From Amoebidium appalachense (lineage: Eukaryota > Protista > Ichthyosporea), in the NCBI GenBank assembly GCA_963693365.1, contig CAVNZM010000009.1, positions 2,048,231 to 2,112,230 of the forward strand: a stretch of 64,000 bases of DNA, read 5' to 3'. The notes under the pieces are model-generated. The model was given only the letters and a program-made list of their open reading frames with translations. It had not been told where the DNA came from and did not search any database. A program made the position numbers and the translations under genes. Positions 7,422-10,400 of this stretch are shown here, piece by piece. Numbering within the stretch: position 1 is the stretch's first letter; the number at the start of each line of letters is the position of its first letter.

Positions 7422-10400
7422 ATGGTTTCCGGCGAGAATTGTGCGCTGGAGCCGACGTGCAACAATGCGGCTGATAAGTCAAAACCCGTAACCTGTGCTG
7501 GGTGCAAGGTGTCGGTGCACAGAGGGTGTGTGTGTGTGTGTGTGTGTGTGTGTGTGTGTGTGTGTGTGTGTGTGTGTGTGTGTGTGTGTGTGTTGGGAAG
7601 CGGGGGGGGGGGGGGGGGGGGGGGTGTGGATGGGTGGGTGGGTGGGTGAGTGTGGGTAGGTGTGTGGATGTGTGTGTAGGTGGGTGTGTGAGGATGGTGT
7701 GTGTGTGTGTGTGTGTGTGTGTGTGTGTGTGTGTGTGTGTGTGTGTGTGTGTGTGTGCAGGGGGGGAGGGGGGGGGGGGGGGGGGGGGGTGAGCGAGTGA
7801 GTGTGTGTGTGCATGCGTGTGTGCGTGCGTGCATGTTGGAGCAAATTTGTGTCAATTCGGCTTGATTTTCTGGTTGTGTGTGCGTGTAACTTGCAGAATA
7901 TGTGAGAAACTTGCAGAGCATGCGTTTGACATCCATTTGTTGCTCTGGATGTATGTGCGTACCAGTTGGAGAACATGAATGGCCTGGCCCACTGCAAATG
8001 GGTTTTTTAGATGTTGTCCAGCCCCTGTGTGTTCGTTTTTGCATGCCATCCTGTGTTCTTTGCCGTTTTTAGGCTGTGCGCTTTCACACTCTACACAGAT
8101 ATACACACACACTCCTTACCCTTCTCAGGGTAACACATGCCACCGTCAATCACCATTATTTCTCGTCTGTGCGTGAGGATGGAGCATTCAAACACCTCAC
8201 TTACATGTGCCCATACAGCCTGCTACGGCCTTGATCCAAACTCTGCCTCCAGTTTTACCTGCGACCACTGCGCAGCTCGCTCAGATAAGGTTAGCTACCC
8301 CCCCCCCCCCCCCCCCCCCCCCCCCCTCCGAAACTTGGGTACTGTGGATGACGTGGGCCCCCCTGAGGATGGGCTCTGCTTATTATGCATACTCTTTATG
8401 TATGGCTTGCATTCTGCATCGTGTTATCCGTTTGTTCTTGTGTACTTCGTACTTTTTGACGCATTCAACCCCCCCCCCCCCCCCCCCCCCTCTTCCCTGG
8501 CTCCCCTTACCCCCCCTCCCCTCTTTCGTGAAGTCTGGTCAGGTGTCTCTTTGCCTCACATTGAGTGGGGTTTCTGGTTCGTAAAGCTTATGTTGTGGTC
8601 TGTTTGATGTTTTTGTATCTGTCTTTCCACCATTCTAATGCGCATATTATCCCCCCCCCCCCCCCCCCCCCCCCCCCCCCCCTTTACTTCCATGCAACCG
8701 GGCATGGTTGCTCTGTGTCGTGCATCTGTAAGCACATACGCATTTTTCGCTGCACTGCATTAGTTTGCACACACATCTGCACCTTTTTGCTCACCTTGCT
8801 TGCATAAGCAACCCTGCTCGTCTTTGATCAAGACGGGTTGACCTGCCCAAGTTCAGTTGATGCCGCTGTCTGAGTTGGAGCGTCGTATATACGCGGGCTA
8901 AGGGGTCGAAACTCAGACGCAATTGATGACTTGGGTCCTCCCTGAGGATGGGCTCTGCTTATGACGCATACTGTGCACATGGCTGATGTTGCATACTTGA
9001 ATGTTTGCCTTTGCATGTGTCCTGCACCATGCTTCTCGTCGTGTATGCGTACTTCGTACCGTTTTCCGCATTTAAACCCCCCCAGTCTTCTTTCAGAGGT
9101 GTCCTTTCAGGACAGACCACTGTGTGGAGACCGCTTTACTTCCATGCAACCTGGCATGGTTGCTCTGTGTCGTGCATCTGTAAGCACATATGCATTTTTC
9201 GCTGCACTGCATTAGTTTGCACACACATCTGCACCGTTTTGCTCACCTTGCTTGCATAAGCAACCCTGCTCGTCTTTGATCAAGACGGGTTGACCCGCCC
9301 AAGTTCAGTTGATGCTGCTGTCTGAGTTGGAGTGTCGTATATACGCGGGCTAAGGGGTCGAAACTCAGACGCAATTGATGACTTGGGTCCTCCCTGAGGA
9401 TGGGCTCTGCTTATGACGCATACTGTGCACATGGCTGATGTTGCATACTTGAATGTTTGCCTTTGCATGTGTCCTGCACCATGCTTCTCGTCGTGTATGC
9501 GTACTTCGTACCGTTTTCCGCATTCAAACCCCCCCTCCCCCCCGCCTCTCTCGCTGTCTCTAGCACTCTCTCTGGATCACCGATCCTGTTAGTGTCAATG
9601 AAACTGTATCTCCCCCCCTCCCCTCAAAGACACACATTCCCCCTCCCCTCCCCCCCACCCCAGCCCACCTCCCACACACACACTCACGAATGCACACGTG
9701 CACACACGCACAATCACGTGCGCACATACACATACACACGGCCATCAATTTTCTCCTCCTTTCTTCCTGACCACCTCTCCAGCTCTCTCTCTCTCCTTTC
9801 CCTCGTCCCCCTCCTCTGCCACCCCCCCCCCCCCCAACCCCTCCCCCCTCCACCCCTTCTACCCCTTCCACACATACACACACACACGCGCACGCACACG
9901 CGCGCGCACACACACACACACACACACACACACACACACACACACACACACACACACACACACACACACACACACACACACACGCACACGCACACGCACG
10001 CACCCGCACACACACACACACACACACACACACACACACACATGCACGGACGCACGCGCAGGCGCACACGCACGTACACGTACACGTACACTCGCGCGCG
10101 CGCGCGCGCACACACACACACACACACAAAAAAAAAAAAAAACCACAAACACAAACACACACACACTTTACATGTATAGAAGACGACTTGCAGGCTTGTC
10201 GAGTTCCTGTTTCAACACACAGCACATGCACAAATATAGATGTGAACGGATGCAGACACACATACACGTGCACATTGCGCACGCGCGCGCGCGCGCGCAC
10301 ACACACACACACACACACACACGCACACGCACACGCACACGCACACGCACGCGCACGCGCACGCGCACGCGCACGCGCACGCGCACGCACACACACACAC

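Follow-up and report, generated by a model that had tools for sequence, protein, structure and literature searches.

A probable hammerhead of SGC order, in split-core form, on a 452-nt intronic repeat of Amoebidium appalachense

Introns within a 64,000-nt stretch of the ichthyosporean protist Amoebidium appalachense (assembly GCA_963693365.1, contig CAVNZM010000009.1, positions 2,048,231 to 2,112,230, forward strand; this whole stretch is the window below) contain a structured RNA element of about 160 nt that recurs several times. A sequence-only reading had described it as a selected and possibly catalytic fold of a class that it could not name, which raises the question of what this element is and what carries it. 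Here, we argue that the fold is real but is a hammerhead rather than a new class. Judged from its sequence, the element is very probably a hammerhead in which the cleavage-site strand (block S), the GAAA strand (block G) and the CUGAnGA strand (block C) follow each other in that order, here called type SGC. As a whole, we consider it probable that a hammerhead core in S-G-C order, with a stem II that is likely completed from upstream, sits on a 452-nt repeat that is likely a non-autonomous Penelope-like element, with a predicted RNA cut after the GUU at 8874-8876.

The copies in the window, numbered from its first letter, are the following.

8803..8963, + strand, copy A of the split-core type-SGC hammerhead motif, from P1 to P1 (descriptor, pair comparison and fold)
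9255..9415, + strand, copy B, predicted cut 9328/9329
39529..39689, + strand, copy C, predicted cut 39602/39603
39981..40141, + strand, copy D, predicted cut 40054/40055
41653..41810, + strand, copy E, diverged, predicted cut 41724/41725
11440..11570, + strand, copy F, tentative and decayed, with block G intact and block C degenerate (motif likeness only)

The five full copies stand where the sequence-only reading had placed them, and all five are, as it had said, intronic and sense to their host genes. Copies A and B lie in an intron between PHD-finger exons (Pfam zf-HC5HC2H_2, E 1e-9), and copies C, D and E in introns that flank a Cupin_8 exon (40387-40530, E 2e-8), both in + strand genes. 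For the region of copy F, neither similarity search nor covariance model returned a match. Copies A-D share 95-99% pairwise identity and are about 65% identical overall to copy E, so that covariation is read from two independent sequences. With fragments included, the family lies on the + strand, sense to its host genes, in 9/9 cases (7 insertions, between 8329 and 41891); long C-runs (72) and G-runs (54) are present on both strands of the window. The introns of the window are dense with long C, G, CA and CT runs, which are the source of all spurious Rfam microRNA matches.

What identifies the element is its set of fixed letters. The segments previously reported as fixed are unchanged across the five copies, and they prove to be the hammerhead core: CUGAnGA, GAAA, NUH and the pairs G10.1-C11.1 and A15.1-U16.1 are all present in 5/5 copies, 14/14 fixed core positions are identical, and N7 alone varies (G in A-D, U in E). 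In copy A, G16.2-U16.1-U17 corresponds to 8874-8876, C11.1 followed by GAAA to 8907-8911, and CUGAGGA to 8942-8948. The strands run from cleavage site to GAAA to CUGAnGA, the non-circular S-G-C order described by Eckert 2023 (PMC10085705), and this supplies the name that had been lacking. Hammerhead types I, II and III, with their cyclic S, C, G order and a core free of pseudoknots, are ruled out by the S, G, C order. An HDV-like ribozyme (nested double pseudoknot of P1, P1.1, P2, P3 and P4, with a catalytic C) was also rejected, as the helices are fully explained as a hammerhead and there is no Rfam match. Of the earlier likeness to hammerhead and HDV ribozymes, the hammerhead part is real and the HDV part incidental. 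The parts of copy A, all on the + strand, are laid out below.

8803..8814, P1 5′ strand 8803-8810 (pairs with 8956-8963) and P1a 5′ strand 8812-8814 (pairs with 8950-8952)
8816..8838, P2 hairpin, 9 bp (from the fold), with one C.A mismatch in copy E
8840..8844, upstream strand for stem II, which provides G10.1 and the 5′ side and pairs with 8903-8907
8846..8860, P3 5′ strand with a kink-turn pattern: C-stem 8853-8855, bulge 8856-8858, GA 8859-8860
8867..8880, block S: stem III 5′ strand, GUU 8874-8876, predicted cut 8876/8877, stem I 5′ strand 8877-8880
8881..8901, hairpin insert in the linker from stem I to stem II, about 20-22 nt, ending in AAN and competing with stem I
8902..8919, block G: stem II 3′ strand, C11.1 at 8907, GAAA 8908-8911, stem III 3′ strand
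8925..8935, P3 3′ strand with the second kink-turn GA at 8925-8926
8938..8948, first half of block C: stem I 3′ strand 8938-8941 and CUGAnGA 8942-8948
8951..8956, alternative stem II 5′ strand, 6 bp with 8902-8907, which excludes P1a and the upstream strand

The cut site is predicted by analogy with hammerheads. In this layout, the pseudoknot, P4 and P5 of the sequence-only reading are stem II, stem III and the hairpin insert, respectively. Its statement that there is no proper hammerhead stem I is wrong: in A-D, 8877-8880 pairs with 8938-8941 (4 bp, with no covariation seen), forming a second pseudoknot, while in copy E this stem either starts with G.G or consists of 3 bp and an extra bulged G before C3. 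Besides stem I, that reading overlooked the kink-turn pattern of P3 and the alternative strand for stem II and, at the level of the repeat, both its 452-nt unit and its truncated copies. The upstream pairing of stem II comprises 5 bp, beginning with G8840-C8907 as G10.1-C11.1, and stem III adjoins both UH and GAAA, with 8-9 bp in A-D and 11 in E. The linkers, of about 22 and 18 nt, exceed the limits of the published SGC pattern (0-8 and 0-15 nt).

Compensatory change between copies A and E was claimed before and is confirmed by pair comparison, in which paired changes were counted by coordinates between two independent sequences. P1 carries three double changes, stem III two double changes and one single change, the hairpin insert one double change, and the upstream pairing of stem II one double change, from C-G to U-A in E. 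The computed fold of copy A is more stable than shuffled sequence (z -3.3; 0/200 shuffles equally stable); that of copy E has a z of -2.2, with 6/200 shuffles as stable, and its minimum free energy structure keeps only P1 of the model. A descriptor of the S-G-C hammerhead, composed after the copies were known and allowing a one-base bulge so as to admit E, matches exactly the five copies in the window, against 2 matches in 200 block-shuffled windows. On the - strand, the CUGAnGA at 45261 looks like block C yet fails this descriptor.

A covariance model built from the five copies, as had been proposed, left out stem III because the alignment displaces E by one column; it recovered the five copies and a further fragment at 8329 (E 2e-7). 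Another 28 matches were weak (E 0.056-1.9), with one of them overlapping a fragment at 17085. A scan of Rfam, likewise proposed, gave no credible match on any copy: with relaxed thresholds included, 0 of 135 matches overlapped a copy, while another run gave 0 and another gave 3, at E 2.3-7.7. Altogether, the view of a selected RNA fold that is probably catalytic, lies in a mobile repeat and belongs to no Rfam family is supported.

The unusual feature lies in how stem II is made. With the 5′ side of stem II located upstream of block S, P1a/P1 and the P2 hairpin come to lie between A9 and G10.1, and we consider it likely from the pairing that the core is split after A9, drawing the 5′ strand of stem II from upstream. 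Block C is broken in the upstream pairing and is intact, with a 2-nt insertion, if the downstream strand at 8951-8956 is used instead. The split may be braced by P3. Kink-turns consist of a C-stem, a 3-nt bulge, tandem G.A and A.G pairs and an NC-stem, and the same 3-nt bulge and both GA steps are kept in A-D and in E with differing flanking stems. As a sequence pattern, the C-stem has 3 or 5 pairs, and position 3b.3n is U.U in A-D and A.G in E. The 8329 fragment retains the 3′ GA of the kink-turn, and a loose-end consensus (agreement 0.68) is compatible with its partner strand.

A second source of comparison is the supplement of Craig 2021, in which the same wiring was seen by eye at 8/40 CTGATGA places, all in consensus records of Naiad-type Penelope elements and representing 5 distinct types; the supplement holds 62 such places, of which 23-62 were covered, and line breaks may conceal matches. 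In these Naiad tails, all helix letters differ from ours, the upstream stem II strand comes right after P2, and the P1 strand right after A9. Their stem I has 2-7 bp, with one tail showing a 2-bp stem I only. The strand downstream of their CUGAUGA is unable to pair as stem II, an argument for the split form being the one held in common.

The motif is carried by a non-coding repeat with a unit of 452 nt, of which the window holds these insertions, all on the + strand.

8683..9535, dimeric insertion 1, about 1.9 units, between poly-C runs, holding copies A and B
39409..40261, dimeric insertion 2, with the same 5′ and 3′ limits, holding copies C and D
41535..41891, monomeric element of a second subfamily between C-runs, holding copy E (limits approximate)
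8329..8467, 5′-truncated copy of a third subfamily, starting at C11.1 and ending at a C-run
17085..17190, 5′-truncated copy, starting at CUGAnGA and ending at a C-run
15836..15915, short 3′ fragment, with a C-run at its end
13880..13940, another short 3′ fragment that stops at a C-run (weak match, E 0.002-0.03)

Both dimers begin at the identical base and run to a C-run, and 9/9 copies or fragments terminate at or near one. Partial tandems, 5′ truncation, a common 3′ end and insertion into microsatellites are traits of Penelope-like elements and retrozymes, and the repeat shows all of them; the carrier is likely a non-autonomous Penelope-like element of the Naiad/Chlamys type. Among A-D, 9 of 20 variable columns split A and B from C and D, and 0 split A and C from B and D, so that each dimer goes back to a single template and to its own copying event (unless homogenised later). 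In public runs, the unit was found in 14,935 contigs of run X1, 5,691 of X5, 253 of X13 and 11 of X16, where depth is not copy number and X13 is only guessed to be RNA. Across family variants (40 rows of 60), 12 rows lie in the motif, at 8 positions, and 0 in the core; these positions comprise 3 in linkers, 2 at helix ends, 1 with its pair kept, 1 probably covaried and 1 (8939) in stem I. Position 8881 is variable in the family. Outside the motif, the structure of the 452-nt unit is unremarkable (circular fold z -1.1, 60 shuffles).

Two stretches near the fragments may be related. At 17760-17915 on the + strand, between C-runs, a CTGATGA and a tail resembling that of copy E can be seen by eye, possibly a further truncated subfamily, with no BLAST or nhmmer match; 16860-17036 (+), also between C-runs, ends in a motif resembling the 3′ end of the family and has no significant match. 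Local tandem duplications are also present at 38587-39021, 24803-25844, 9876-10841 and 56218-57415, 230-1000 nt long and flanked by simple repeats; they may be further microsatellite-targeting elements.

The motif likely cuts and circularises the repeat's own RNA. In the scheme that we propose, P1/P1a and P2 would be placed between A9 and G10.1 while the kink-turn bends P3, bringing the three strands together as they are in an ordinary hammerhead. A dimer transcript would be cleaved once per unit, releasing a free 452-nt monomer whose ends would rebuild P1, P2, P3 and stem III together. As the ends would re-pair and the nick would lie inside the reformed core, reversal of the cleavage reaction, or else a ligase of the host, could seal it to a circle. 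In trans, the reverse transcriptase of a Penelope-type element might then use a nicked poly-C/poly-G target to prime on the RNA's C-tract; copying part of the unit would give truncated copies, and nearly two rounds would give dimers. In the ensemble of the predicted monomer (8877-9328), computed without pseudoknots, the ends pair through P1, P2, P3a and 8/9 stem III pairs at probability 0.83-1.0, and through P1a at 0.79. SGC-order hammerheads are known to cleave in vitro at the predicted site, with published rates of 0.007-0.19 per minute (PMC10085705).

Several observations weigh against a split-core hammerhead that is active on a Penelope-like carrier. Stem I is short and in competition with the hairpin insert; a common variant at 8939, which makes up 9-19% of the depth in X1 and X5, disrupts its third pair unless covaried, and a variant at 8824 disrupts the last pair of P2. 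GUU is a weaker cleavage triplet than GUC or GUA. The comparison draws on only two independent full sequences, and in one of them, copy E, stem I starts with G.G or C3 is preceded by an additional G; a natural hammerhead was impaired by insertions at that place (PMC3088659). Eckert 2023 took block C as uninterruptible (PMC10085705), and not all Naiad tails have the wiring, some placing CUGAnGA before GAAA. As for the carrier, intact copies are tolerated sense in introns without sign of purging, 0/4 truncated copies begin at the predicted cut, and no Penelope-type protein gene, nor an RT/GIY-YIG element sharing the tail, was seen in the window.

How stem II is formed also separates two other readings from this one. 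Unlikely, in our view, is that the active form is an ordinary type-SGC hammerhead, in which 8951-8956 makes stem II after the 2-nt insertion and the upstream strand with P1a acts as an off-state cage, for example in host pre-mRNA. The downstream strand offers 6 bp in both lineages with two changes from U-G to U-A, and its duplex energies are close to those of the upstream strand (-7.2 versus -7.7 kcal/mol in A, -8.7 versus -8.0 in E). Downstream stem II also forms in the computed folds of the isolated 3′ cleavage fragments of A and E, its role would account for the fixation of three unpaired letters before P1, and insertions of 1-2 nt between A9 and stem II are known and are allowed by Eckert 2023 (PMC10085705). 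Yet the double change is found solely in the upstream pairing, P1a reaches its probability of 0.79 with both halves present, and in Naiad tails, by eye, the upstream strand alone serves. A combination of both strands is tentative and more doubtful than the split-core reading itself, though less so than the cage: the kink-turn-braced split-core hammerhead would be the long-missed ribozyme of Naiad and Chlamys elements, dating from before animals, and would here have two states, with the upstream strand cutting and the downstream strand taking stem II in the freed 3′ half, so that the monomer captures its 3′ end and self-ligates and the circle is copied into poly-C runs by a Penelope-type enzyme.

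The remaining alternatives concern activity, class and carrier. A hammerhead-derived fold that is silent or very slow, retained for recognition by a reverse transcriptase or a host kink-turn-binding protein, would suit the weak stem I, the hairpin insert, the GUU site and the intact sense copies in introns, as well as the lack of truncation at the predicted cut within the window. We regard it as about as improbable as the cage, or slightly more so, since the catalytic letters are fixed across lineages while N7 is free, no core variant occurs among 40 of 60 rows, and weak stems are tolerated by natural hammerheads (PMC3088659). That the motif is instead a new ribozyme or RNA class with coincidental hammerhead-like letters, as was first thought, is very improbable: each core letter adjoins its required hammerhead helix in both lineages and in the Naiad tails, and Rfam models are unable to represent the S-G-C strand order. 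What speaks for it is the missing Rfam match and the published SGC search pattern, whose linkers are too short to fit. Equally hard to credit is a correct ribozyme on a carrier that does not depend on Penelope, either a SINE-like element partnered by a LINE or a repeat kept uniform at the DNA level by gene conversion. The window does contain a LINE-type reverse transcriptase, though a broken one, and a 5′ limit shared by both dimers is not expected from a random stop of copying; against this, the 452-nt unit and the LINE region have no shared sequence, the tails with the matching ribozyme wiring are those of Naiads, and partial tandems at (C)n targets point to Penelope-like elements (PMC8557442). 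The split-core hammerhead on a likely Penelope-like repeat remains the reading that we prefer.

The LINE-type reverse transcriptase just mentioned is the sole reverse transcriptase seen in the window. It lies in an intron of the cupin gene at 45866-47316 on the - strand, broken into two frames (Pfam RVT_1, E 2e-15), and a protein 88% identical to it exists in EukProt. Elsewhere, a large gene at 58359-62869 (+) opens with what looks like a signal peptide and encodes three YGxxxM...GFDADGY repeats, a stretch rich in Pro and Thr, and an FG-GAP repeat domain; the top non-self matches of this domain are mostly prokaryotic or metagenomic. At 2667-3176 (-), an intronless open reading frame (ORF) of 170 aa has a signal-peptide-like start, a Ser/Gly-rich middle and a C-terminal hydrophobic segment; a homolog search with it returned itself alone. 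One protein of the window matches a EukProt record at 100% identity; among the best 120 of 379 matches, the only others with a eukaryote label are a protein of Sphaeroforma arctica and one labelled CFRG (Creolimax), at 34-35% identity, in weak support of an ichthyosporean host.

Searches for relatives of the motif covered sequence collections and literature. A pattern scan of viral contigs gave 0 relatives; the same scan of metagenome contigs gave 45 loci and no relative, the loci resembling bacterial coding DNA, with a stem III of at most 4 bp in 44 and of 6 bp in one. In the literature, we found no split-core or kink-turn hammerhead, no SGC hammerhead in a eukaryotic genome and no description of the Naiad fold, although subscription papers and supplement figures given as pictures only may bear on this. 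Literature joining Ichthyosporea with Penelope yielded nothing relevant, as did the accessible parts of PMC10162972 and bioRxiv 10.64898/2026.09.16.752053. Weinberg 2015, cited in the accessible text of PMC13725137 among accounts of hammerheads that have additional helices or are permuted in other ways, could bear on novelty.

If our reading is true, non-circularly permuted hammerheads move from anonymous metatranscriptome contigs to high-copy loci of a eukaryotic genome, and the core can open between A9 and G10.1, which was deemed impossible in the paper that defined the type (PMC10085705). It would also explain the seeming absence of hammerheads in Naiad-type Penelope elements. The present copies carry the design beyond animals, onto an element targeting poly-C, and could offer a small, directly testable model of how a retroelement RNA cuts and closes itself.

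The closest known ribozymes are the type-SGC hammerheads themselves, HRIMA-1 and the SGC variants. Eckert 2023 named this order and showed that it cleaves, and the 583 examples in the available text include none in the genome of a known organism (PMC10085705). Our motif has in common with them the S, G, C order, the core letters, stems I and II as pseudoknots and the U after A9. Published examples, as far as that text describes them, are at most 104 nt, metatranscriptomic, intact in block C and joined by a linker of about 3 nt (PMC10085705). The present motif is longer, at about 160 nt, and occurs in a genome at high copy. Its block C is likely split by P1/P1a/P2, and it adds a hairpin insert of 22 nt, the kink-turn pattern and a second strand that might form stem II.

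Naiad tails come closest in layout, sharing, by eye, the order P1, P2, upstream stem II strand, P3, S, G, C, P1. Naiads were stated to be without canonical hammerheads, and unexplained core or half-core motifs were noted in them; the available text of Craig 2021 gives no description of the fold (PMC8557442). In contrast to our repeat, Naiads are animal, protein-coding and (TA)n-targeting, have a linker of 0-5 nt and show no alternative stem II strand, and in the supplement text at hand the kink-turn pattern appears only in two near-identical tails, in reversed orientation, before the Naiad_Ovul and Naiad_Omin headers.

Hammerhead-bearing repeats are also reportedly known from animals as non-LTR retrozymes, on the account attributed to Cervera and de la Pena 2020. 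Like our repeat, these come as tandem non-coding units, each a few hundred bases long and bearing a single hammerhead, and they are proposed to circularise and argued to be non-autonomous derivatives of Penelope (bioRxiv 10.64898/2026.07.22.740005, accessible parts). Their hammerheads are of type I and circular order, whereas the repeat described here has a non-circular order and a protist host. The carrier itself most resembles the non-autonomous Chlamys elements. Chlamys elements were reported to lack canonical hammerheads, at least in the available text (PMC8557442), and no Chlamys tail with the present wiring occurs among the CTGATGA places covered (40/62). Elements of this group target (C)n, and their non-autonomous forms insert head-to-tail (PMC8557442); with those such as MRC1, our repeat shares (C)n targets, pseudo-LTRs, head-to-tail insertions and a non-animal host.

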